Positions 6,592 through 59,065 of a DNA stretch of 64,000 bases are shown piece after piece. The position numbers were made by a program, and so were the translations under genes. Source of the stretch: an uncultured Gammaproteobacteria bacterium (GTDB lineage: Bacteria > Patescibacteriota > Microgenomatia > UBA8517); NCBI GenBank assembly GCA_964422865.1, contig CAYRCU010000002.1:8323-72322 (forward strand). The letters run 5' to 3'. Under the pieces are notes generated by a model, which saw only the letters and a list, made by a program, of their open reading frames with translations, did no database searches and was not told the origin of the DNA. Each line of letters starts with the position of its first letter. The stretch's first letter is position 1.

Positions 6592-7433
6592 TGGATATTA
6601 AAGAGCTTCGGATTACTGCGAATGAGGTGAGAAAGGATATTATTAGAATGCTGCTTGCGGCCGGGAGCGGACACAGTGCGGGTTCTTTGGGACTTGCCGA
6701 TATATTTGTTGCTCTTTATTTTGAAATTATGAACATTGATCCTCAGAAGCCGGATTGGGAGAGGCGAGACAGACTTTTTCTTTCTTGCGGACATGTTGCA
6801 CCCGTGATGTATGCCACCATGGCGCGCAGGGGATATTTTCCGATAAGTGAACTTAAAACTCTTAGGAAACTGGGGAGCAGACTTCAGGGTCACCCTGAGA
6901 GAGTAAAGCTTTTGGGGTTGGAGAGCACTTCGGGGCCTTTGGGAGAGGGTTTGGCGCAAGCTTCGGGATATGCGATAGCTTCTAAAATGGATGGCCGGCG
7001 ATATAGAATTTATTGCGTGACGAGTGATGGAGAGCACCAGGAGGGAAATCACTGGGAGGCCGTGATGTTTGCGGGGAAGTATCGCTTGTCTAATTTGACG
7101 TTATTTGTGGACAGGAATTTTATTCAGATTAGCGGGAACACGGAGGAGGTTATGCCCCTTTCGCCTTTGGATGAAAAATACAGGGCTTTCGGGTGGAACA
7201 CGGTGGTGATTAATGGACATGACTTTGAGGAAATATTAAGAGCGGTGGAAGAGGCGCGGGATGAATATGACAGGCCAACTGTAATTATTGCGAAGACTAT
7301 TCCCGGGAAGGGAGTTAGTTTTATGGAGGGGAGAAGTGAGTGGCATGGGAAGCCTCCAGACAAAAAAGAGTCAGAGATTGCCTTGAAAGAGCTTGCACAG
7401 ATCAAAAGGGAGATTGAAAAAGATGATAAATGA
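6591..7433 (+). CDS. tkt: transketolase, N-terminal (TPP pyrophosphate-binding) subunit
   Basis: GSGHSAGSLGLADIFVALYF and HVAP motifs; split two-gene transketolase arrangement. Confidence 0.8.
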   Translation: MDIKELRITANEVRKDIIRMLLAAGSGHSAGSLGLADIFVALYFEIMNIDPQKPDWERRDRLFLSCGHVAPVMYATMARRGYFPISELKTLRKLGSRLQGHPERVKLLGLESTSGPLGEGLAQASGYAIASKMDGRRYRIYCVTSDGEHQEGNHWEAVMFAGKYRLSNLTLFVDRNFIQISGNTEEVMPLSPLDEKYRAFGWNTVVINGHDFEEILRAVEEARDEYDRPTVIIAKTIPGKGVSFMEGRSEWHGKPPDKKESEIALKELAQIKREIEKDDK

Positions 7434-11495: not shown

Positions 11496-12470
11496 ATGGG
11501 GAGAGATGAGAGAGATGTGAGACAAAAGAAGGAGAAGCGTGAAACAAAAAGACCGTGGGGGAAGTGGGAGAGATATTTTGTTATGTTGGTGATTTTGACT
11601 ACTGTTGGGGTTTCTGCGGTTTTGGGTTTAAGCGCCAGAAAATGGAAACTTCCCGGACTTCCAAGATTCAAGTTGCCCAAGATAAGCCTTGAGAGGACGT
11701 ATGTTATTGATGGAGGAGGCCGAGAGATGGATTTTTCTTTACTTGAGAGCGGGGTTTTTGAAATAACTCGTGACTTGACGGGACTTTATGCTGTGAGGTT
11801 TGTGGGTCTTAGAAGCGGGAGGGAGTGGGGATTTAATGACAGGGAGATTGTGCAGGCGGCATCGTTAATGAAACTTCCATTGATGGCTCTTTCTTACAAG
11901 CAGGCTTTGGAGGGAGAATTAGATTTGGAGGAGACTTATGAATTAAAGGCGGCGGATAAGATAGGTGGGAGTGGAAGCATGTATGGTGAAAAAGAGGGGA
12001 AGATTTACACGTACGGAAGACTTCTTGAGCTTATGGGAAAACAGAGTGATAATACGGCTTTTAATGTGATGCGCAAAATGTTTGGGGACGAAATGATTCA
12101 GGAGTATATTTATGAGATTGGGATGGAGGATACTAGTGTGTCGGAAAATGAGACGACGGCATTTGATATGGGGCTTTTTTTTAGTAGGCTTTGGAGAGGT
12201 GAGTTGATTGGTGTTGAGATGCGGGATGTGATGCTTGCGAGTTTGACTGATACGGCTTTTGAGAGATGGATGAGGGCTGGAATTCCTGAGAATGTGGTTG
12301 TTTCACACAAATACGGCAGGGAAATACATGTTGTGAATGATGCCGGTATTGTGATGGCTGAGAGAGAGCCGTTTGTGCTTGTGATTATGAGTGATGGAGT
12401 GGTGGAGGCAGAGGCGGATGAGGCAATTTCCGAGCTTGCCAGGGTGGTGTGGGAGTTTCAAGAGCGGTGA
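11496..12470 (+). CDS. class A beta-lactamase-like serine hydrolase, membrane-anchored
   Basis: N-terminal TM helix; SLMK (SxxK) and SDNTA (SDN) motifs; sits next to the cell-wall synthesis genes. Confidence 0.5.
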   Translation: MGRDERDVRQKKEKRETKRPWGKWERYFVMLVILTTVGVSAVLGLSARKWKLPGLPRFKLPKISLERTYVIDGGGREMDFSLLESGVFEITRDLTGLYAVRFVGLRSGREWGFNDREIVQAASLMKLPLMALSYKQALEGELDLEETYELKAADKIGGSGSMYGEKEGKIYTYGRLLELMGKQSDNTAFNVMRKMFGDEMIQEYIYEIGMEDTSVSENETTAFDMGLFFSRLWRGELIGVEMRDVMLASLTDTAFERWMRAGIPENVVVSHKYGREIHVVNDAGIVMAEREPFVLVIMSDGVVEAEADEAISELARVVWEFQER

Positions 12471-26815: not shown

Positions 26816-26888
26816 GGAGCCGTAACTCAGTGGTTAGAGTGCCAATCTTATAAGTTGGAAGTCGATGGTTCGAATCCATCCGGCTCCA
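26816..26888 (+). tRNA. tRNA-Ile (anticodon TAT)
   Basis: 73 nt cloverleaf: acceptor GGAGCCG/CGGCTCC, D stem ACTC/GAGT, anticodon stem CCAAT/GTTGG with loop CTTATAA, T arm GATGG-TTCGAAT-CCATC. Confidence 0.75.
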
Positions 26889-27180
26889 CAAAACAGTTTC
26901 GCCGTACGTCTTCGGAACGCATTGAAAAGAACTTCGTGTTGTGCATGGCGAATCCATCCGGCTCCACAAAACAGTTCCGCCGTACGTCTTCGGAACGCTT
27001 TGAAAGGAAAGAAGTTTATGCATGGCGAATCCATCCGGCTCCACAAAACAGTTTCGCCGTACGTCTTCGGAACGCATTGAAAAGAACTTCGTGTTGTGCA
27101 TGGCGAATCCATCCGGCTCCACAAAACAGTTCCGCCGTATGTCTAAAGGAACGCATTGGAAGGAAGTTTGGGAGTTTGTT
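26871..27180. repeat. 4 tandem units (~78 bp) that each begin with the 3' end of the tRNA-Ile(TAT) gene
   Basis: GAATCCATCCGGCTCCACAAAACAGTTYCGCCGTACGTCTTCGGAACGC... starts at 26871, 26949, 27026 and 27104; the first unit is the tRNA 3' end itself. Confidence 0.85.
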
Positions 27181-27182
27181 AA

Positions 27183-28046
27183 TTAGAGTTCTTCGAGCAC
27201 CTGTTTTTTGCCGGGTTCTTTTATTTGTGCAAGTTCAAGATAGCGCTCTGTGGTCGAGAGGCGTTTGTGACCCGCGGCTTGAGAGATTGTTACAAGGTCA
27301 ACTCCGCGCTTTAAGTTTTCTATGATGAACGTGTTTCTGAGATCGTTGACTGAATAGCCCGGGATTTCCGCTTTTTGCATGTAGCGATCGATTGCGGCTC
27401 TGATGTTTCTTACTGCCAGGGGATGTCCGTTTTTGCTTATAAACAGGTATTCTGATTGAGTGTTTGAACGGGATCTGATGTAGGTTTCGATGGCTTCTTT
27501 GGCCGGTTGGTTGAGGAAGATTTTCCGCTCAGGTTGGGTGGCGTGGGCTTCGATGAAAATTTCTCCCTTCTTGATGTTTTTGAGTTTTAGGTTTGCAACT
27601 TCTGATATTCTGAGGCCGGTCTGGAGAATGATTTCAACTATTGCTGCCATTCTGGGGTCTGTACGAACGACGTCTCTTAGGGCTCTATATTCGATTTGGG
27701 AGAGGAATTTGGGTGCAGTGTTTTCGATTTTGGGGTGTGAAACGTCTTTTGAATGGTCGAACTGGATTACTCCCTGATCTTTGGCCCATCTAAAAAAGGT
27801 TTTGACGGCATTTAATTTTCTTGAGACTGATTTGGGAGTATATTTTTGTGCAAGAAGGGTGTCGCGAAAGGTTTCGAGATCTTTCTGTGTTATATCGGAA
27901 ACCACGCTTTTTGAAGTTTTTGCGAGATGTTGAGTTAGTTGTTCTAAATCAGATTTATAGGCTAGAATGGTTGAGGGCGAGCGACCTAGCTCTTGGAGAT
28001 GAGATATGAACTTTGGTAGTAAGATTATTAACGTTTCCTGGCTCAT
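27183..28046 (-). CDS. tyrosine-type site-specific recombinase/integrase
   Basis: C-terminal catalytic region AGHKRLSTTERYLE (HxxR...Y) plus upstream R; 287 aa; stop codon abuts the tRNA-fragment repeat array. Confidence 0.8.
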   Translation of the reverse strand: MSQETLIILLPKFISHLQELGRSPSTILAYKSDLEQLTQHLAKTSKSVVSDITQKDLETFRDTLLAQKYTPKSVSRKLNAVKTFFRWAKDQGVIQFDHSKDVSHPKIENTAPKFLSQIEYRALRDVVRTDPRMAAIVEIILQTGLRISEVANLKLKNIKKGEIFIEAHATQPERKIFLNQPAKEAIETYIRSRSNTQSEYLFISKNGHPLAVRNIRAAIDRYMQKAEIPGYSVNDLRNTFIIENLKRGVDLVTISQAAGHKRLSTTERYLELAQIKEPGKKQVLEEL

Positions 28047-28690: not shown

Positions 28691-28849
28691 GGTGAGCTTG
28701 GGTTGGGAAGCAGGAGCTTGGCCAACTGGATATTAGATTAGCCAGGGTAGCTCAGTTGGTAAGCAAAGCTTGGCCAACTGGATATTAGATTAGCCAGGGT
28801 AGCTCAGTTGGTAAGCAAAGCTTGGCCACCTGAGCAAATTGATAAGCCA
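28691..28849. repeat. tandem units made of the tRNA(CAT) 5' fragment followed by a hairpin-forming conserved motif
   Basis: Units at 28741-28792 and 28793-28849 are GCCAGGGTAGCTCAGTTGGTA + AGCAAAGCTTGGCCA(A/C)CTG...; a degenerate unit lies at 28691-28740; downstream CCAACTG is complementary to the D-loop CAGTTGG. Confidence 0.8.
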
Positions 28850-28922
28850 GCCAGGGTAGCTCAGTTGGTAGAGCACAGGATTCATAAACCTGCGGTCGCG
28901 AGTTCGATCCTCGCCCCTGGTA
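28850..28922 (+). tRNA. tRNA with anticodon CAT (Met or Ile2-lysidine type)
   Basis: GCCAGGG acceptor, TAGCTCAGTTGGTAGAGC D arm, anticodon loop TTCATAA, T arm GCGAG-TTCGATC-CTCGC, 3' CCCTGGT. Confidence 0.7.
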
Positions 28923-28927
28923 CTTTT

Positions 28928-43350: not shown

Positions 43351-43634
43351 GTAAGAAGGATTTTGTTGCCATTGGTGATGTTTTGGATAATTATGATGTG
43401 GAGGAAGATAAATATATTTCCAGGGAGTTCCAGAAGTATGGGTATGATCTGGCAAAAGAGCTGGGAGATTTGAAACACAAGGCACTTTATATAAAGCTCG
43501 CTAAGGAAACACCCAGAGGTTTTTTAGAAGCTGCCAGGAATTTTGTAAAGGATGCTCAGAGGGTGAGAAGCAAACCAAGACTTTTTATGTGGAAGCTTTC
43601 AAAACTGAAAGCTGAACACACAAAAGCGAAGTGA
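43347..43634 (+). CDS. hypothetical protein whose 3' end seeds a tandem repeat
   Basis: 95 aa; C-terminus LFMWKLSKLKAEHTKAK is duplicated three times downstream. Confidence 0.35.
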   Translation: MSKKDFVAIGDVLDNYDVEEDKYISREFQKYGYDLAKELGDLKHKALYIKLAKETPRGFLEAARNFVKDAQRVRSKPRLFMWKLSKLKAEHTKAK

Positions 43635-43805
43635 TTATGTGGAAGCTTTCGCAGCTGAAAGCGAAGAAGGCTGAACACACAAAAGCGAAGTGATTATGTG
43701 GAAGCTTTCAAAACTGAAGGCTGAACACACAAGAACAGAGTGATTATGTGGAAGCTTTCAAAACTGAAAGCGGAGAAAGCGACAAACAAGGGAAGAAAGA
43801 AGAAT
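43585..43805. repeat. 4 tandem units (50-62 bp), each a mini-ORF MWKLSKLKAE... with its own ATG and TGA
   Basis: TTATGTGGAAGCTTTCAAAACTGAAAGCTGAACACACAAAAGCGAAGTGA and variants at 43585, 43635, 43694 and 43744. Confidence 0.8.
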
Positions 43806-48864: not shown

Positions 48865-48980
48865 TCCGATCGAGCTTTATGAGAGCTTGGAGTATTATAC
48901 ATGTTGGTTTTGTTTGGCTCAATCTGTCGTATTGTTTACGCAATGCGGGAACTTGACAGTGGAGATGTGCTTGGTTAGGA

Positions 48981-49681
48981 TGGAGTTGGATATGAGGAAT
49001 TCTTCTCAGACTGGTTTTGCTGCGTTGGCAATTTTGGGAATACTTGCTCTTATTGGTGTGGGTGCTGTGGGTACCACTGCTGCTTCGGATAGTGCCAGGC
49101 CGGGAGATGTGTTGTATGGTGTTGACCGGGCGATTGAAGGTGTTAGGCTTGCCTTTGCTAATTCTCCTGAGGCTCGAGCTAGAGTTCAAAGCGAACTTGC
49201 CCTGGAAAGATTGGAAGAAGCGCAATCATTGGCGAACGAAGTGGGTCGTACTGCCCATCTTGAGGAAGCTTTAGTGAGGGCACAGACACATCTTGCCAGT
49301 GCTCAGGCTAGAGCGGAGGAGGCTCAGGCACGAGGTGTGGATGTTGATGAAGTTTTGGCTCTTTTGGCGGAGAATTCTGTTAGGCTTCAGGAGAATTTAG
49401 CCGAAGTATATGAAAAGGCACCTGAGCAGGCGCAGCCTGCGATTGAGCGAGCGATGGAGGCTACTCAGAGAGGTTTTACTGAGGCAGCAGGTGCTGTTTC
49501 GAACCAAAAACGAGAGAGTCTTCTTGAGGATTCGCTTAACAGACTGGAGAATGCTAGGGAGAGGGTGGAGGAGCAGGGTATGGAGTTGCCTGAGATTGAA
49601 ATTCCAGAAGTTGAGCCGGGAGTAGGAGTTGAAGATGGTGTTCCCGCCGATGTCTCCAGGGGTAGGCCGTTGTTGCGCTGA
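48981..49681 (+). CDS. hypothetical membrane-anchored coiled-coil protein
   Basis: N-terminal TM (FAALAILGILALIGVGAVG) followed by an Ala/Glu/Arg-rich helical region; start uncertain (track ORF begins at 48887). Confidence 0.35.
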
Positions 49682-49956
49682 ACACTTCCGAGTGGTAGAT
49701 TTGGTTGTAATGGTAGAGCGTTTTGTTTCGGAAGATTTTGTGGTTTTAGCGTGTCCGGTTGCTGATGGTTTTCCGCCCTGTTGCAGAGGTTGCGGCGGTG
49801 GCTGGCCGGGTACAAAGGCGACGACGAGGAACCTTACTGAGGCTGTGGTGAAGGAGAGATTAGATCCAAATAAGCTGGGTTGTCAGCCATTGGTTGATAG
49901 AGCTAGAGCAGGTATAAATGAACTTAAGAGAGCTTCTTTAGTATCAAAATCTAGGT

Positions 49957-50028
49957 GACCCCACAGGGAATCGAACCCTGATTTGCACCTTGAAAGAGTG
50001 CCGTCCTAAACCGTTAGACGATGGGGCC
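49957..50028 (-). tRNA. tRNA-Glu (anticodon TTC)
   Basis: Reverse complement GGCCCCATCGTCTAACGGTTAGGACGG; anticodon stem GCACT/GGTGC; loop CTTTCAA; T arm CAGGG-TTCGATT-CCCTG. Confidence 0.8.
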
Positions 50029-50039
50029 TGAAATGTTCA

Positions 50040-50097
50040 TGCATACCCATCGTCATGCGGTGCAAGCACCTGTATTTTCAATATAGACGATGGGGCC
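50040..50097 (-). repeat. partial duplicate of the tRNA-Glu 5' end with an adjacent complementary arm
   Basis: GGCCCCATCGTCTA (tRNA nt 1-14) recurs at 50084-50097; GACGATGGG, complementary to nt 4-12, lies at about 50046-50054 (minus-strand sense). Confidence 0.6.
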
Positions 50098-50236
50098 AAT
50101 AAACACACAGTAGTTTATCAATTTTGTGGTCTTGAGACAAATTTATTTCCTTATTTTGGGCGAGTAATTGAGTATTTTGAAGATAGAATTTTTTAATAAT
50201 TATACTGCGTGTAAGCTTGTGCTTTATGAGTTATAA

Positions 50237-50446
50237 TTGTTTAAGGTGCGAGAGTTTTTGACGGTAGAGGAGGCAGCGAAATATCTTCAAGTGGGGGAGG
50301 AAACGGTTCGAAGATATATAAAGAGAAAAAAACTTCCCGCCGAGAAGTATGCGGGGAAGTTTGGGGTTTACTTGATTAACAAGACGGATCTTCTGGAATT
50401 TAAGATTGAGAGGCTTCAAAAAAAGATGCTTCCTATCTTTGAGTGA
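50237..50446 (+). CDS. helix-turn-helix DNA-binding protein (excisionase/MerR-like HTH_17)
   Basis: LTVEEAAKYLQVGEETVRRYIKRKKLPA is a typical short excisionase-family HTH; 69 aa. Confidence 0.5.
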   Translation: MFKVREFLTVEEAAKYLQVGEETVRRYIKRKKLPAEKYAGKFGVYLINKTDLLEFKIERLQKKMLPIFE

Positions 50447-51051: not shown

Positions 51052-52547
<1,496 letters not shown>

Positions 52548-52680
52548 AGGAGTGTTTGGTCGTTAAGAACGACAACAACACCCGGTTTTAAGATCACGGT
52601 TTTTCCTTAAAAACCGAATCCGCTAGACACGGCGAGAAAGGTCGCTTCTGAGTGTATCTTGAGTAATTAGACAAAAGACA

Positions 52681-52706
52681 CCCCGTCTGTTAAGGCGGGT
52701 TTTTTG
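52681..52706 (+). terminator. rho-independent terminator after the 16S gene
   Basis: CCCGTC-TGTTAA-GGCGGG hairpin followed by TTTTTTG. Confidence 0.6.
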
Positions 52707-52719
52707 TTATACTGCCCTA

Positions 52720-53742
52720 ATGGATGATACTGCCCGACCAAGAATGATGGTTGAAGAGGTTCCTTCTGTGTTTCCGCAGCAAGAAGCTCAGGGGGTGGAT
52801 GAAGTTGTTCAAAAGCTGCCTGTGGTATCTAAAAGGAGTTTTTCTTTTAGAGCATTGGTTTTTATAGTTCCGGGAGTTCTTCTTTTGGTTGCGATACTTG
52901 TTGGAATGTATTTGGCAGATATTTTTTTTGAGGGAAATGAACAAGTTGTTGTTACTTCAACCCCCTTTCCTTCTTTGATTCCTGCCACGCCTGTTGCTTC
53001 TTTGGCTCCTGTTTCAAAATTATTGCTATATGTAAATGGGGACGGGGGATTTAAGTTTAGTTATTTGGATGATGTGGAGATCTTGGAATGTGCGGGTAGA
53101 GTGGAGTTGTTTGCTAATAAGAGTGTTCAGAAAACTTGTGAAGGAATGGGGGTTGTGTCGGTAATTTATGATGAGGATCAGTTTGAGTCAATTCAAGGGT
53201 TTGAGACAAGTGGGAAGGAGTTGGGGGAGAGAAAGTTGTTGGTGGTTTTGAGGGATGAGAGATATAGAAATGTTTATCAGAAGGTGGTGTTGAGTCTTAA
53301 GGCTTTAGTTGTTGATACTTCGGACTGGAGCTTGTATGAGAACGCTGTTGGAAAATACAGCTTTCTTTACCCCTCGGACTGGAAAGTTACGGAGCTTGAG
53401 AGTGGGAATGTTGTAGTTCAAAAAGATGAAGAGGAAAAGGACCACTGGATTTATCTTGTTGAATATACGGGAAGTGTAAGTGATGCTGAGCTTACGGCTA
53501 GTGAGATTTCTTCTTCTACTGTTGGTTTGGCTGGTTGGGACGGAGTACCCGAAGTGAATGTTCGCAATCTTTCCGGAGGGACAGCGCAGGTGATTGAAGG
53601 AAAGCTTGGAGATGTGTGGCAAGTGTATGTGGTTTTGTGGTACAAGGACAGATTGTACCAAATGAGTTGGGTGGATACTTTGAGTAGACAGGAGAGTGCA
53701 AACTTTGAGGCGATTATATCCAGTTTTGAACTTGTGAATTAG
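52720..53742 (+). CDS. hypothetical membrane-anchored protein (lies between the 16S and 23S genes)
   Basis: 340 aa with an N-terminal TM (LVFIVPGVLLLVAILVGMYL); no family recognised. Confidence 0.35.
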   Translation: MDDTARPRMMVEEVPSVFPQQEAQGVDEVVQKLPVVSKRSFSFRALVFIVPGVLLLVAILVGMYLADIFFEGNEQVVVTSTPFPSLIPATPVASLAPVSKLLLYVNGDGGFKFSYLDDVEILECAGRVELFANKSVQKTCEGMGVVSVIYDEDQFESIQGFETSGKELGERKLLVVLRDERYRNVYQKVVLSLKALVVDTSDWSLYENAVGKYSFLYPSDWKVTELESGNVVVQKDEEEKDHWIYLVEYTGSVSDAELTASEISSSTVGLAGWDGVPEVNVRNLSGGTAQVIEGKLGDVWQVYVVLWYKDRLYQMSWVDTLSRQESANFEAIISSFELVN

Positions 53743-55877
53743 TGATCTTTTGAAGATTTTTTACCCCAACGTTCTTGAGAGATTCTTATTACTTTACTTC
53801 TGTTTTGGTTTGCTGATGTTGGAAGCGGAAGAGTGTTGGCTAAAAACGGACGACTTGTATAGCCATCTATTGTAAGCTTTGCTGCTATTTGAAAGTTGTC
53901 CAGGTTTACAAGATCCTTTTTTTCGAAAACTTCTGCAAATTCTTTATATAGCACTTCGGCGTCTTCAGCCCCTATGGCAAAGGAGATAAGAGAGCCTACG
54001 TTTCCAAGGATTGCTTTTTGCACTTCTTCTGGGATTTGGGCCATGTATTGATTGGCAAGCATTAGGTTTAGGCGGTATTTTCTTGCTTCTGAAAGAATTT
54101 TAATGAATGATTCTGTAGCGAAGTTTTGAAACTCGTCAACGTAAAGAAAGAAGTCTGTGCGCTCTTCCATGGGGAAATTGACCCTGCGCATGGCTGCTAG
54201 TTGAAATTTTGTAATGAGAACTGCTCCCAGGAGTGCTGCGTTATCTTCACCGAGACGACCTTGAGAGAGATTTGCCAGGAAGATTTTTTGATTATTCATT
54301 ATGTCATCGAAATGAATTGTGCTTTTAGGGCTTCCGATGATACGACGAATTAGGGGGGAGGTGACAAATTGTCCAACTTTGTTTTGAATAGGGGAAATGG
54401 CTTCTTTTTGGAGTCGGTCCGGCATTTTTTCATATTCTTGCTTCCAAAAGTGAATGAGACTTTGATCTTTGACTTGTTCGAGGGCCCTTGCTCTGTAGCG
54501 GGTATTTGCAAGAAGTTTTAGAACATCTTGCAGGGTTGCTCCGTTAATGTGGGTGAGTGTTAAAAACGAGTTTCTGAGAATGTATTCCATACGAGCTGAC
54601 CAAACATTGGCCCAGATTTTTGTGAATACTGCCATGAGTCCGGAGACAACTAGCTCTGCTTCTTCTTGATTGGTGACTTCCAAGGGATTAATGACGATGG
54701 GTGACTGCCGATCTGAGGGATTAAAATAGATGGTGTCGTTTATTCTGTGACTTGGAATGTAGTTTAAGAGATCTTCACAAAGGTCGCCGTGAGGGTCAAT
54801 TACACCAAGACCTCGGCTTTTTTTTATGTCGTCGATACACATGTTTGCGATGAGTGTGGATTTCCCTGTGCCGGTTTTTCCCACGACCCAAATATGGCGC
54901 CTTCGATCATTGTTTTTTATTCCAAAGATTGTGTCATGGTTTTTGAATTGGGTGCGTGCAAAGAAGTTTACCAAAGCTTTTTCTTCAGTTGTTTTGTCGG
55001 TTGCGATTGGAAGGTTATCGGGAGCCTCGGAAAGGACGGAAGTCCCCCAGGCGATGGAGGCGGTTTTTACTTTTTCGCTGGGGAGGTGCCAGAGAGTAGC
55101 GAGCTCCATGATGTTTAGGATTTGTTTGTCGGTAACAGTTCTTTCAAGTAATGCTTTTTGAGACTTTGATTTTGATTCCAACAGGCCTCTTTTTTTAGTT
55201 ACAAAGCTGTTTCCGTCGGATCGAGTGAATACTCCAAGAGCAGATGAAAGTTCCGTAAGGACCCTTTTGTTGTTTGAGGCGATGCGAAGGGAAACCAAAA
55301 AACCTGGGTAAGAAATTTTTTCTTTTATAATGGAAGCGTCCGGATGTGGGGAGTAAGTTCCATCCTCATTTTTTGTGCCGTGGTCCGCGTAACTTTGACC
55401 TGTGGATTGCCATTTGGTGCTTGTAGCCTCAAGGGCTAATTGGATTATTGTTATTTCGGTGGGGTTACCTTTGGTGAGAATTGTGAGAAGGCTTGAGAGA
55501 GGATCGATATCGGTGAAATTTGTATAAGTAGCCAGAGGATAGTAATTACCTCTTTTTAGAGTTAATTCTTTGATATAGAGCGGGGACTCGCTTTTTAGGG
55601 GATCTTGGGTTGGCTCTATTATTACAAGAGGGTATGATGATCGGATTTGAGCCTCTATAAATGGCAGTAGTTCAGTGTTACAGGTTATTTGAAAGTGGAT
55701 TTGTTGGTTAATAAGGGCTATTTCGAGTGCAAGAGGGGCGGCGCGCTTGCCTTTGAGACGATCCAGATTCGAGACGCTGTTTATTTGGGTAAGGGTTGCC
55801 AGAAAAGTTTGAGCAGCTTCTGGTGTAACTTCTGTGTTCCTTGGTATTTTAAGAAAAAGAGTAGTGAGGTTTTGCAT
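53739..55877 (-). CDS. type IV secretion coupling protein-like ATPase (TraD/TrwB/VirD4 family), paralog
   Basis: VVGKTGTGKSTLI, DPHGD, FNPSDRQSPIVINPLE, YVDEFQNFAT; same domain order as the 24464 gene but lacking the N-terminal TM. Confidence 0.6.
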   Translation of the reverse strand: MQNLTTLFLKIPRNTEVTPEAAQTFLATLTQINSVSNLDRLKGKRAAPLALEIALINQQIHFQITCNTELLPFIEAQIRSSYPLVIIEPTQDPLKSESPLYIKELTLKRGNYYPLATYTNFTDIDPLSSLLTILTKGNPTEITIIQLALEATSTKWQSTGQSYADHGTKNEDGTYSPHPDASIIKEKISYPGFLVSLRIASNNKRVLTELSSALGVFTRSDGNSFVTKKRGLLESKSKSQKALLERTVTDKQILNIMELATLWHLPSEKVKTASIAWGTSVLSEAPDNLPIATDKTTEEKALVNFFARTQFKNHDTIFGIKNNDRRRHIWVVGKTGTGKSTLIANMCIDDIKKSRGLGVIDPHGDLCEDLLNYIPSHRINDTIYFNPSDRQSPIVINPLEVTNQEEAELVVSGLMAVFTKIWANVWSARMEYILRNSFLTLTHINGATLQDVLKLLANTRYRARALEQVKDQSLIHFWKQEYEKMPDRLQKEAISPIQNKVGQFVTSPLIRRIIGSPKSTIHFDDIMNNQKIFLANLSQGRLGEDNAALLGAVLITKFQLAAMRRVNFPMEERTDFFLYVDEFQNFATESFIKILSEARKYRLNLMLANQYMAQIPEEVQKAILGNVGSLISFAIGAEDAEVLYKEFAEVFEKKDLVNLDNFQIAAKLTIDGYTSRPFLANTLPLPTSANQNRSKVIRISQERWGKKSSKDH

Positions 55878-55932
55878 ATAACTATTATATAAGTATATAG
55901 GGAAGAAGTAGTTGATGTGTAGGGTTTTTGGG

Positions 55933-56006
55933 TGGGCCTGTCAGGATTCGAACCTGAGACCTCCAAATTATCAGTTTGGCGCTCTAACCAACTGAGCTAC
56001 AGGCCC
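55933..56006 (-). tRNA. tRNA-Ile (anticodon GAT)
   Basis: Reverse complement GGGCCTGTAGCTCAGTTGGTTAGAGCGCCAAACTGATAATTTGG...; loop CTGATAA; T arm TCAGG-TTCGAAT-CCTGA. Confidence 0.8.
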
Positions 56007-56213
56007 GAGTGCATAACTATTTTAACTCAAAACAATAATAAATCCAACAAAACGTGTGGTTTTATACAGATGGTTGACTGATGTGGGGTGAAAGTATATA
56101 ATTGGCATTACCTTTTTTAAGTTCGGAATAATTAATGAGAAGTAAGAGTTTAAAATTAAACACAGACCCTTTGCCTGCTTTTTGTGGGTAAAAGGGATTT
56201 AAGCTTCAAATTG

Positions 56214-56245
56214 ACCGACTTAAAAGGGTCGGTTCTTTTTATTTT
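56214..56245 (+). terminator. hairpin plus T-tract (candidate intrinsic terminator or small RNA 3' end)
   Basis: GACCGAC-TTAAAAGG-GTCGGTT followed by CTTTTTATTTT; no plus-strand CDS upstream. Confidence 0.4.
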
Positions 56246-56317
56246 GAGATGGATTGGAACTGGGCCGATAAGAACCTGGCTTTGCCAGAACCTTGACGCC
56301 CTGCTCGTTAATACTCG

Positions 56318-56432
56318 CAGGCCGTTAGCTCATCTGGTAAGCAAAGCTTGGCCAGCTGAGCTGATTGATAGATTAGGGCCGTTAGCTCATCTGGTAAGCA
56401 AAGCTTGGCCAGCTGAGCTGATTGATAGATTA
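56318..56432. repeat. 2 tandem 57-58 bp units made of the tRNA-Ala 5' fragment followed by a hairpin-forming conserved motif
   Basis: G(G)GCCGTTAGCTCATCTGGTA + AGCAAAGCTTGGCCAGCTGAGCTGATTGATAGATTA, twice; CCAGCTGAGC is nearly complementary to the D-arm GCTCATCTGG. Confidence 0.8.
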
Positions 56433-56505
56433 GGGCCGTTAGCTCATCTGGTAGAGCGTCCGGTTTGCATCCGGGAGGTGGCCGGTTCGAGTCCGGCACG
56501 GTCCA
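56433..56505 (+). tRNA. tRNA-Ala (anticodon TGC)
   Basis: GGGCCGT acceptor with G3:U70; D arm TAGCTCATCTGGTAGAGC; anticodon loop TTTGCAT; T arm GCCGG-TTCGAGT-CCGGC. Confidence 0.8.
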
Positions 56506-57215
56506 CTCGCGAGGCTCGTTGCCCGTTTGACTCGAGGAGCGCGGAGAACAAAGGACCTTTCGGTACTATGCACGGCGAGTCCGGCACGGTCCACAAAGCA
56601 ATTTGCTTTTGACTTTTGAATATCATAATTGATTGATGGTTTTTAAAAGTCAGTAGCAAAAAAGTGAGATTGTTCTTTAACATCTGAAGAGAATTTAGGT
56701 CGAAAGTCTTTACAACGCAGACAGTGGATGCCTTGGTCTAAGTTACCGAAGAAGGACGTACAAGGCCACGATAGTCGTCGGGGAGCTGCCAAGAAGCTTT
56801 GATCCGGCGGTGTCCGAATGGGGAAACCCACCCCGCTTTGGCGGGGTACTTGCAGCCCAAATTTTTTGATTTATCAGAAATATTAAGTTGCAAGGGGGAA
56901 CCAGGGGAACTGAAACATCTAAGTACCCTGAGGAAAAGAAATTAAATAAACGCCTTTGGCGTAAGATTGCCTGAGTAGCGGCGAGCGAAACGGCAAGAGC
57001 CCAAACTTTGACCTTTGCCTTCGGGTGAAGGACAGAGGGTTGTAGGATCCTAATATGGGACTTTTAACGGTAGTAGAACAGCATGGAAATGTTGGCCATA
57101 GAAGGTGATAGCCCTGTATACGAAACTGAAAAAAGCCCTAAGGAATTCCTGAGTACCACGGTCAAAATCTGTGGGAATCTGGGGGAACCATCCTCCAAGG
57201 CTAAATATAACTTAG

Positions 57216-57261
<46 letters not shown>

Positions 57262-58740
57262 GGGAGGGGAGTGAAATAGTAACTGAAACTGTTTGCGGAC
57301 AAACCGAGAGAGCCTGTGCTTGCATGGGTGATCTCGTGCCTATTGAAGAATGAACCGGCGAGTTGTCGTATGCTGCCAGCTTAAGTCAGTTAAATGACCG
57401 AGGCGTAGCGAAAGCGAGTTTGAAAGAGCGAAGAAAGCCTTGTGCTTTCATAAGTAGCATGCGGCAGACCCGAAACCAGGTGATCTAACCATGAGCAGGG
57501 TGAGTCCTATCGAAAGATGGGAGGAGGCCCGAACCGGTGTAAGTTACAATTTGCTCGGATGACTTGTGGTTAGCGGTAATATGCCAAACGAACCTGGAGA
57601 TAGCTGGTTCTCCCCGAAAGGTCTATAGGGACCGCGGCACGGAAAGGAACACTGATGGTAGAGCTACTGGATGGGGCAGCGAGAGGTAACTCAAGTTGTC
57701 TCAACCAAACTCCGAATAGCAGTGTGGGACGTGCTAGACAGCCGCATGGGGCTAAGCTCATGCGACGAAAGGGAAACAACCCAGACTCTCAGATAAGGCC
57801 TCTAAATCTTGACTAAGTTTTAAAGGAAGTTTTTTTCCACAGACAGCTAGGAGGTTGGCTTAGAAGCAGCCATCCTTTAAAGAAAGCGTAACAGCTCACT
57901 AGTCGACTTGCCTGCGCAAGCAGGTGGGAAGAAAGCGCCGAAGATTTATCGAGGATTAAGTCAAGTGCCGAAGCTGGAGCCCCGCCTTTGGCGGGGGGTA
58001 GGGGAGCGTTCCAAGGGCAGTGAAGTTCAACTGTAAAGTTGGATGGAGCGCTTGGAAGTGAGAATGCCGGTATGAGTAGCGTACAAGAGAAGTGAGAATC
58101 TTCTCCGCCGAATGCCCAAGGTTTCCGTCGGAAGGTTCGTCCGCGACGGGTTAGTCGGCTCCTAAGGCGAGGCCATATGGCGTAGTCGATGGATAGCTGG
58201 TTAAAATTCCAGCACTTTGGTAAATTCGCTTTTAACTGAGGACTGACGGAGTGAAAGAGCTTGTGGCAATTATTGAATTTTGTTGCAGAAGCCTCACCCA
58301 TCTGGTGGGAAAATCCGCCAGAGACGCAAATTATTGCGAATGGTTGAGGTGGTGCTAGTCCTGCGAGAGCAGGGCGACATGAGCTAATAGCTTCCCAGAA
58401 AAGGTTCGCAGTGAGAATTTATCAAAGCCGTACCGCAAACCGACACAGGTGGGCTGGTAGAGAATACTAAGGCGAGCGAGAGAAGGAGGGTTAAGGAACT
58501 CGGCAAATTAGCTGGACGTAAGTTCGCAAGATGTCCTGCCTCCAAATAGTAATATTGGAGGTCGCAGCTAACGATTGCTGGTCGACTGTTTATCAAAAAC
58601 ACAGGTCCGTGCAAACTCGAAAGAGGAAGTATACGGGCTGACGCTTGCCCAGTGCCGGTAAGTTAAGGGGATGGGTGATTTGCCTTCGGGCACTTTGCTT
58701 TGAACCGAAGCTCCGGTAAACGGCAGCAGTAACTATGAAC

Positions 58741-59065
58741 AAGTTGTAGTTGAGAGTGGCCTCCGCTTGAGGCGGAGTATTCGTCACTCCGTTGATTGAT
58801 AACAACGAAAAATTTGGCTATATGCTGGAACATCCCGCAAGGTCATTGGTAGGCCACCAGTTTGGCAACAAACTGGTTAACTCCTGAAAATCCAATGAAT
58901 AGGGACAATCAGCAGGAAAGACCCCGCTTAGCGGGGAATCCTCAGAGACTATACGCCAAACCTCGCAATAGTGAGGATGATATAGTCCGATCCTTATGGA
59001 GACATAGGGAGTCCTGCGGAAACGACGGGACCACCCCGCCAATGCGGGGGAGTAACAAAAAAGAA
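58741..59065 (+). mobile_element. ORF-less intron in the 23S gene (E. coli-equivalent site about 1917, inferred by flank alignment)
   Basis: Exon sequence AACTATGAAC | about 325 nt insert | TCTACGGTAGCGAAGTTCC interrupts the conserved AACTATAACGGTCCTAAGGTAGCGAAATTCC region. Confidence 0.5.

Follow-up and report, generated by a model that had tools for sequence, protein, structure and literature searches.

Anatomy of the tRNA-Glu locus

The DNA analyzed here, referred to throughout as the window, is a 64,000-nucleotide (nt) stretch of contig CAYRCU010000002.1 (assembly GCA_964422865.1; GTDB lineage Patescibacteriota, Microgenomatia, UBA8517), a densely coding piece of bacterial chromosome. Its minus strand carries an intact tRNA-Glu(TTC) gene, and just 5' of this gene lies an exact copy of the first 14 nt, followed by a hairpin-forming segment, an inverted copy of part of the gene start and a short spacer (Table 1). 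A sequence-only reading of the locus had proposed the copy, a complement of tRNA nt 4–12 after it, the resulting 9-bp stem with a loop of about 30 nt and a small hairpin inside that loop. Each of these elements was recovered: ARAGORN, Rfam and exact repeat mapping placed the tRNA gene and the copy, GACGATGGG is the exact complement of tRNA-Glu nt 4–12, the stem is present in the minimum-energy fold with 31 nt between its arms (50055–50085), and the small hairpin GGTGCTTGCACC is perfect and unique in the window.

Table 1. Coordinates of the tRNA-Glu locus and of related features in the window
Feature	Positions	Strand	Remarks
tRNA-Glu(TTC), intact	49954–50028	minus	ARAGORN; Rfam tRNA, 60 bits
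Downstream member of the direct repeat, tRNA-Glu nt 1–14	50015–50028	minus	Repeat mapping
Spacer TATGCATGAACATTTCA	50029–50045	minus	Outer helix in RNA fold
Inverted copy GACGATGGG, complementary to tRNA-Glu nt 4–12	50046–50054	minus	
Apical segment, 29 nt, TATTGAAAATACAGGTGCTTGCACCGCAT	50055–50083	minus	
Perfect small hairpin GGTGCTTGCACC (GGTGC-TT-GCACC) inside the apical segment	50059–50070	minus	
Upstream copy of tRNA-Glu nt 1–14, GGCCCCATCGTCTA	50084–50097	minus	Exact; alignment with relatives
Candidate sigma-70-type promoter, TTGTCT-17 nt-TAAACT	50112–50140	minus	14 nt upstream of the copy
HTH_17 open reading frame	50237–50446	plus	Divergent from tRNA-Glu; outside the repeats
tRNA-Ile(TAT) mirror-image design: three extra nt 56–74 copies, 78-nt array	26816–27165	plus	Downstream of the gene
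tRNA-Met(CAT) design: two 52-nt units plus older decayed units	28702–28923	plus	Intact tRNA 28850–28923
tRNA-Ala(TGC) design: 2.4 identical 57-nt units	56320–56594	plus	Intact tRNA 56433–56506

The repeated 14-mer, GGCCCCATCGTCTA, occurs exactly twice in the window, 69 nt apart; 55 nt separate the two copies, and the 69-nt insert is made up of these 55 nt and one 14-nt repeat. Read in the direction of the tRNA, the segments follow the order nt 1–14 direct, nt 12–4 inverted, nt 1–14 direct. The first junction, from the end of the 14-nt copy to the complement, holds the palindrome GGTGCTTGCACC within 29 nt of unexplained sequence, and the second junction is 6 nt. By appearance, the inverted segment extends some 7 nt past tRNA-Glu nt 1, although this extension is statistically weak alone. 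The apparent continuation of the inverted arm into the upstream flank points to DNA, rather than mature tRNA, as its source.

Chance expectation, on which the sequence-only reading had staked its interpretation, is negligible for the 14-nt repeat. By simple counting, the chance of a perfect 14-mer copy that begins at tRNA nt 1 and falls in the 300 nt upstream is about 1e-6 per tRNA; for a 9-mer between the two copies that complements the repeated segment, it is about 1e-3. Taken alone and compared in shuffles with the whole tRNA on both strands, the 9-mer gives p of about 0.04. The remainder of the insert has no significant similarity to tRNA-Glu (p = 0.28, shuffles), and a reading of the interior as scrambled tRNA sequence was rejected for that reason. 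The apical segment has no copy elsewhere in the window or in the 136 loci (955 kb) that were fetched from metagenomes and relatives for comparison and are given L numbers below, except in an identical public assembly contig (L001, SRR15988951). That contig is 100% identical over 6.1 kb spanning the locus, and it may come from the same data as the window.

The minimum-energy RNA fold predicted for the 161-nt region contains the 9-bp stem together with the nested hairpin and the tRNA cloverleaf. The GACGATGGG arm pairs with the upstream copy in this fold and with the real tRNA in the centroid fold. The leader alone has a predicted folding energy of -22.8 kcal/mol (z = -2.4), with an outer helix in which GTTTAT..GC, upstream of and within the copy, pairs with GC..ATGAAC of the spacer. 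A search against Rfam 15 matched only the tRNA itself; the leader regions gave chance-level matches.

Relatives have an empty site behind a promoter

The nearest relatives among species-representative genomes are metagenome-assembled genomes with 60–69% identity in the SpoU methylase, one of them a complete chromosome of 811 kb; more distant SpoU matches are titled Doudnabacteria, Peribacteria or "Patescibacteria group." Four relatives with 64–69% amino acid identity in the neighboring SpoU gene (L002, L005, L006, and L007) keep a Glu-Lys-Gln tRNA cluster with a (G)ATAAAAT -10 box 13–24 nt upstream of tRNA-Glu, and the 69 nt and the 14-nt copy are missing in all four. When the window is aligned with them, its upstream copy and flank occupy the position of the relatives' promoter and tRNA start, and the 69 nt appear as an insertion after tRNA-Glu nt 14. 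The candidate promoter ahead of the copy is a weak match (8 of 12 positions) that falls below the promoter-scan threshold, and it aligns with the -10 boxes of the relatives.

A promoter-like site that precedes the copy, together with relatives that have no such 69 nt, indicates a lineage-specific insertion inside the 5' part of the gene. Because the insertion lies behind the promoter, tRNA-Glu is probably transcribed with a hairpin-bearing leader of about 80 nt. The neighborhood differs in another respect: tRNA-Lys and tRNA-Glu are 1.09 kb apart in the window (48865–49953), with a DUF5667 open reading frame (ORF) on the other strand between them, and only 19–64 nt apart in L002, L006, and L007.

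The same design at other tRNA genes of the window

All eight tRNA genes of the window were scanned for copies of their ends in the flanks, and four were affected (Glu, Met, Ala, and Ile(TAT)). The loci of tRNA-Glu, tRNA-Met, and tRNA-Ala have a common layout of 5' copy, hairpin tip, inverted copy, spacer and intact tRNA, which bears out the proposal that one architecture, a tRNA 5' copy with its self-complement, is found at three loci. The scan also revealed mirror-image copies of the 3' end, at tRNA-Ile(TAT) and tRNA-Ala, that the sequence-only reading had missed.

Two copies of nt 1–21 lie upstream of tRNA-Met and two upstream of tRNA-Ala. Tandem Repeats Finder reported arrays with periods of 52, 57, and 78 nt, and the Ala units are 100% identical. 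Each Met unit is composed of a copy of nt 1–21, AGCAAAGCTTGG, CCAACTGG.. and a spacer. At both loci the copy extends through the GGTA of the D-loop and is followed by AGCAAAGCTTGG, CC plus a complement of the D-arm, and a spacer ending in ..TAGATTA. The motif AGCAAAGCTTGG had been noted at these two loci before, and its positions were confirmed at 28762 and 28814 (Met) and at 56340 and 56397 (Ala); it is itself a mini-hairpin (AAGC-AAA-GCTT), and the hairpin tip at both loci is GGTAAGCAAAGCTTGGCC. The Ala and Met inserts are homologous from end to end. At one position the Ala arm, CCAGCTGAGC, fails to match the D-arm of its own gene, GCTCATCTGG, and from this misfit the arm looks imported rather than copied locally.

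At tRNA-Ala, nt 56–74 are also copied once downstream of the gene, at 56576–56594. The 78-nt array behind tRNA-Ile(TAT) (26871–27165) abuts the stop codon of a gene for a XerC/D-like tyrosine recombinase (27183–28046).

The Met/Ala motif defines a widespread sequence family

The sequence-only reading had argued for a common generating mechanism and against a single sequence family. This is true only of Glu in comparison with the others; the Met and Ala inserts belong to a definable family with a tip of 17–18 nt that also occurs at promoters. The 17-mer GTAAGCAAAGCTTGGCC matched at least 120 metagenome contigs, a lower bound, many of them from groundwater small-cell fractions. Against viral contigs it produced three chance matches with no tRNA nearby. 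The pattern was found in the window, in relatives and at 42 or more metagenomic tRNA loci. There are 42 distinct tRNA loci with the motif 30–90 nt upstream on the same strand, and they span 11 amino acid types (Thr, Gly, Ala, Ile, Leu, Gln, Glu, Lys, Pro, Asn, and Trp). In 29 of these 42 loci, a recognizable tRNA 5' copy is joined to the motif; the copy ends at nt 20/21, or in one case at nt 9. The copy is perfect from nt 1 in 20 of the 29 fused loci, and the direct duplication overshoots nt 1 by just 0–5 nt in 28 of them. TATAAT boxes precede the copy, rather than the tRNA, by 8–20 nt.

After the motif comes an arm that complements the flanking ..GG, with an approximately 10-fold or greater excess relative to a swapped control. 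The description of this arm as the self-complement of the copy holds only in part for the Met/Ala family, in which the arm, where copy and tRNA differ, is often the better complement of the real sequence downstream (L108, L109, L026, and L053). The motif junction is GGTA in 90 of 141 instances, and most others end in GTA. In one relative of the window (L006), the motif sits in a 12-bp hairpin built on tRNA-Lys nt 1–9.

The motif also occurs in other settings. It forms tandem arrays of 23–34-nt units, adjoins the antisense strand of tRNA-Ser (L093 and L101) and lies directly upstream of extended -10 boxes. A canonical 30-nt unit, AGCAAAGCTTGGCCAGTCAGAGCCCTGGTA, turns up repeatedly at unrelated places, one of them the loop of a different hairpin (L083). 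The TTGGCC of the motif is 17–18 nt from a -10-like hexamer in 12 of the 32 cases that have such a hexamer and could serve as a -35 element. Motif orientation was not biased with respect to GC skew (34 versus 29 loci); it tracks the downstream tRNA or promoter. A second hairpin in the free units (L046, L075, L076, L083, and others) keeps its stem via paired changes and has similar 4-nt loops, as in CCAAT-CAGA-ATTGG, CCGAGT-CAGA-CTCGG, CCAAAG-AGTA-CTTTGG, and CCGATG-AGTA-CATCGG.

Motif-less and 3'-end cases

Several tRNA loci on other contigs resemble the Glu locus in layout and, like it, have no shared motif. A tRNA-Ser gene (L093) has a 14-nt copy at -69 with a TATAAT box ahead of the copy, a Glu-type layout. 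At tRNA-fMet (L031), tRNA-Leu (L088), tRNA-Gln (L133), and tRNA-Arg (L011), copies of 11–19 nt are followed by hairpin-rich inserts that are likewise motif-less. The 3'-type is represented by ten cases in which a copy of nt 56–74 is found 55–110 nt after the tRNA. Ahead of each copy stand a pseudo T-arm half, a CTCGATAGYGC-like motif and a GTGCA..TGCAC hairpin.

Two other arrangements were seen at 3' ends and in the anticodon loop. The sequence TCGAC(AA/TT)GCTCAGGGTTT follows 3'-end copies of tRNA-Glu and tRNA-Leu (L057, L079, and L062). Upstream of tRNA-Ile(GAT) in L049 and L074, pseudo-copies reach the anticodon (..CCTGAT) and continue with GAC, a hairpin and ACATATGRAA, which makes the anticodon loop a third type of junction.

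Turnover between and within lineages

L031 is syntenic with the window at 24–29 kb, with 66% amino acid identity in the recombinase and a common gene order of tRNA-Ile(TAT), recombinase, tRNA-fMet and tRNA-Met. The fMet site is empty in the window (TATAAT-16 nt-tRNA) and filled in L031, and the Met site is filled in the window and empty in L031. At the filled fMet site, promoter, leader and nt 2–13 are duplicated around an insert of approximately 100 nt, and the proximal promoter copy has decayed. At tRNA-Ile(TAT), the window has three perfect 3' copies, and L031 has two decayed 3' fragments, one of which is nearer to the tRNA of the window than to that of L031 itself. These differences between filled and empty sites argue against a conserved role at particular tRNAs.

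Variation was also detected within a species. L020 and L043 belong to the same species (99.96% identity) and are copy-number and deletion variants at tRNA-Thr(GGT) (L043, approximately 12071–12320; L020, approximately 6946–7075; both oriented with the motif on the plus strand). One of the two carries the copy, six units, an inverted arm, a spacer and an intact tRNA-Thr. In L020, the copy and four 23-nt units are fused to the rest of tRNA-Thr, so that the D-loop is interrupted and no rescue copy follows. A computational excision test identified L020 as the only interrupted gene without a rescue copy among about 45 loci. Tried as an explanation for the inserts in general, a tRNA intron or split gene was rejected, since an intact cloverleaf follows the insert and only L020 is interrupted without a rescue copy.

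A DNA-level rearrangement as the probable origin

In our view the tRNA-Glu gene was rearranged at the DNA level, and the locus is neither an attachment site nor a gene of its own; we put the probability of this explanation at roughly one in two. The anatomy, the empty sites, the position of the promoter ahead of the copy, the recurrence of the design, the rapid turnover and the tandem amplification are observed directly, and all of these but the recurrence, alongside the varying duplication lengths, fit a DNA-level process. The rearrangement would have placed a 69-bp segment after tRNA-Glu nt 14, composed of a hairpin piece, an inverted 5' end of the gene (nt 12 to 4 and probably a few bases past nt 1) and a short spacer, and closed by a new direct copy of nt 1–14 that rebuilds the intact gene. 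Template switching, the process behind tandem inversion duplications and quasipalindrome mutagenesis, yields a direct-inverted-direct order. During replication, the nascent strand could have snapped back at a hairpin and then returned to the original template. Only duplications that reach the tRNA 5' end would leave a working gene, and selection of this kind may explain why the repeat begins at nt 1. If short switches are the commonest and the survivors are those that restore a complete tRNA, boundaries would pile up at tRNA ends. The old promoter would now drive a leader of about 80 nt that folds into the 9-bp hairpin, with the outer helix, and that would have to be removed by RNase P.

The Met and Ala loci may have arisen by the same kind of event with a recurrent cassette of AGCAAAGCTTGG, CC plus complement, and spacer. 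Its shared sequence, GGTA junction and conservation suggest that this cassette spreads from site to site, the candidate targets being GGTA-ending sequences in tRNA D-loops and extended -10 boxes, after which units would amplify in tandem by slippage. The route could be copy-choice via D-arm homology or a dedicated enzyme.

Several points weigh against this account. The 29-nt apical segment of the Glu locus has no identified source, and a simple snap-back gives a short loop. This particular hairpin is known from a single Glu-type instance, and transcription of the leader, like its trimming by RNase P, is inferred. Many lineages share one and the same Met/Ala tip, a constancy that stems in part from collecting the loci with that exact 17-mer; such a constant tip suggests protein recognition or some function and not pure replication error. 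Perfect upstream copies also often stand beside a drifted arm or spacer (L060, L115, L088, and the fMet site of L031), which needs either homogenization by slippage or selection on the copy.

Alternatively, the inserts may be small palindromic elements that a dedicated enzyme mobilizes, whether in the REP/RAYT manner, by single-strand transposition of the IS200/IS605 type or through some other nuclease. Cassettes would then be pasted into single-stranded loop-coding DNA (GGTA of D-loops and -10 boxes, TTCGA of T-loops), and the flank duplication would come from the insertion chemistry or its repair. Consistent with this are the exact 17-mer in at least 120 contigs from many lineages, the canonical unit in unrelated contexts such as the L083 hairpin loop, the preference for GGTA junctions (90 of 141) and the hairpin and CTCGATAGYGC motif common to the 3'-type inserts. 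Within the tip are mini-hairpins, GCAAAGC or GCGAAGC, of a kind noted for great stability in single-stranded DNA. IS200/IS605-type elements show a replication-strand bias, but none was apparent here as judged by GC skew, and the flank duplications vary from 9 to about 49 nt. No candidate transposase turned up in the 64 kb, where no systematic protein-family scan of all ORFs was made, and tblastn with the window recombinase against the 955 kb of fetched loci returned only the syntenic L031 homolog and two weak matches. The Glu insert, moreover, has no second copy in the window or in these loci. We regard an enzyme-driven element as rather unlikely, and we give no greater weight to a functional role of the leader, in which the hairpin would be kept for precursor folding, processing or stability and the arm, by pairing with either the decoy copy or the tRNA, would act as a two-state switch. 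The two alternative folds are compatible with such a switch, the promoter lies upstream of the copy, which would bring the hairpin into the transcript, upstream copies retain their identity with the tRNA as neighboring sequence drifts, and some arms keep their pairing through G-T (L078). Yet the hairpin is not conserved at tRNA-Glu of the four relatives, the set of leader-bearing tRNAs differs between close relatives, distal parts of the arms decay, no Rfam family was matched, and the same cassette occurs in non-transcribed promoter spacers and beside the antisense strand of tRNA-Ser.

Remnant attachment (att) sites of an integrative element that targeted tRNA-Glu with an integrase and excisionase are very improbable. 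Integration commonly leaves partial tRNA genes (PMC9897764), and here a partial copy flanks inserted DNA with its boundary at the tRNA end. The sequence-only reading had pointed to an adjacent excisionase-like helix-turn-helix gene: the HTH_17 ORF is indeed present, 210 nt away, but it fails as evidence for a mobile element, being divergent, outside the repeats and with no integrase nearby. The ORFs around 48.9–51.0 kb encode a DUF5667 protein, the HTH_17 protein and a bacterial RRM protein and lie next to the 16S rRNA gene, and the only tyrosine recombinase of the window is 22 kb away. The repeat represents the 5' end of the tRNA (nt 1–14) and not the 3' end, a mere 55 nt rather than element-sized DNA lies between its members, dozens of other loci are equally small, and att sites do not come with an inverted copy of their repeat. 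Chance resemblance or an assembly artifact has next to nothing in its favor beyond the p of about 0.04 for the 9-nt inverted repeat alone; it is contradicted by the exact 14-nt repeat from nt 1, by the pattern at four of the eight tRNA genes and on many other contigs, and by the identical sequence in a public assembly. Reverse transcription of mature tRNA, suggested by repeat boundaries at nt 1 and nt 74, was rejected: the 3' copies carry genomic flank and not CCA, the inverted arm at Glu seems to pass nt 1, and some duplications include 12–45 nt of leader or promoter.

Beyond the rearrangement at the Glu locus itself, a bolder interpretation can be put forward tentatively, at clearly less than even odds: the GGTAAGCAAAGCTTGGCC units may be undescribed, tiny mobile hairpin elements of Patescibacteria, and the same could then apply to the inserts of the Glu and T-loop types. 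They would home to loop-coding tRNA DNA (D-loop GGTA, T-loop TTCGA) and extended -10 boxes with a target-complementary arm and rebuild the interrupted gene or promoter during insertion. This "self-repairing" insertion would be driven by an enzyme or by base pairing between arm and target, and leftover leader hairpins might be co-opted for the handling of tRNA precursors.

Comparison with known systems

Tandem inversion duplications and quasipalindrome template-switch mutations are known from the genetics of Salmonella and E. coli. The loci described here resemble tandem inversion duplications in their direct-inverted-direct order, hairpin junctions, variable length and later remodeling by deletion or tandem repetition. 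They differ in scale, with segments of 9–50 nt at tRNA gene ends instead of kilobases, in the extra hairpin sequence at one junction, which is constant across loci and genomes in the Met/Ala family, and in a repeat boundary that seems to be set by selection for an intact tRNA.

Small palindromic repeats include REP/BIME with their RAYT transposases, the Rickettsia palindromic elements and the Correia elements of Neisseria. Like these, the units are short, multi-copy hairpin repeats, often in tandem, that are tolerated in or beside functional genes of small genomes, and they can supply promoter hexamers (here, TTGGCC 17–18 nt from -10 boxes). Unlike them, they are 23–57 nt long, are placed at the GGTA of D-loops or at -10 boxes and bring a regenerated copy of the target and a target-complementary arm, and no associated transposase was found in the window or fetched loci. 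Many dispersed copies, a REP- or MITE-like feature, are absent for the Glu insert and present for the Met/Ala motif.

Attachment sites of integrative elements in tRNA genes were reportedly described by Williams in 2002. As with such sites and tRNA gene fragments (PMC9897764), a partial copy stands beside an intact tRNA, the match stops at the tRNA boundary and junctions fall in loops; unlike att sites, the fragment is 5', the insert measures tens of bases and includes an inverted copy, no integrase is nearby and the units form identical arrays. The TIGR arrays of TIGR-Tas systems, found in phages and Candidate Phyla Radiation (CPR) bacteria, have two alternating 8–12-nt repeats, diverse 9-nt spacers and an adjacent Nop-domain gene (PMC12045711). 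Short tandem repeats with hairpin potential in the same bacterial group are a likeness, but here there is one constant part of 12–18 nt, the variable parts are identical within an array, and the arrays are tied to tRNA genes or promoters. A TIGR-Tas array was accordingly rejected as an identification on unit structure. The split tRNA genes of Nanoarchaeum also have a tRNA 5' piece followed by sequence complementary to another piece, whereas here an intact tRNA gene follows and no joining is needed. Literature searches on the motif and on such tRNA-linked repeats returned nothing relevant.

Other features of the window

The window contains 16S, 23S (with a group I intron), and 5S rRNA genes besides the eight tRNA genes. 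GC skew is uniformly positive and very strong over 1–64000 (+0.14 to +0.47). Its DUF5667 and bacterial RRM proteins and a TraG-like ORF between 16S and 23S suggest a place in the CPR (Patescibacteria), as do the nearest relatives by SpoU. Exact-protein look-ups for the HTH ORF and a 107-amino acid ORF gave no match. Between the 16S and 23S genes are 4 kb (52545–56700) with a PsbP-like ORF, an opposite-strand ORF for a TraG/VirD4-like coupling protein and an inverted tRNA-Ile(GAT), and a near-consensus promoter (TTGACT-17 nt-TATAAT, approximately 56074–56102) lies ahead of the tRNA-Ala/23S unit. The group I intron in the 23S gene (58727–59009; Rfam, 71 bits) has opposite-strand ORFs nearby. At 43585–43771, a tandem repeat of 50–59 nt (3.1–3.6 copies) apparently repeats the 3' end of an ORF, including the stop codon, and each unit contains an AGCTTTC..GAAAGCT hairpin.

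Significance

The Glu locus is one instance of a broader and, it seems, undescribed habit of Patescibacteria genomes. CPR genomes are about 1 Mb with single-copy tRNA genes, and insertion into such genes should therefore be lethal. Repeated hairpin insertion that leaves tRNA genes and promoters working would illustrate how selfish or error-born DNA survives in minimal genomes. The design also explains odd "tRNA fragments" that confuse annotation and gives tRNAs long, structured leaders, as predicted from the folds. If an enzyme or a base-pairing rule underlies the targeting of GGTA, it would represent a new mechanism of site selection.

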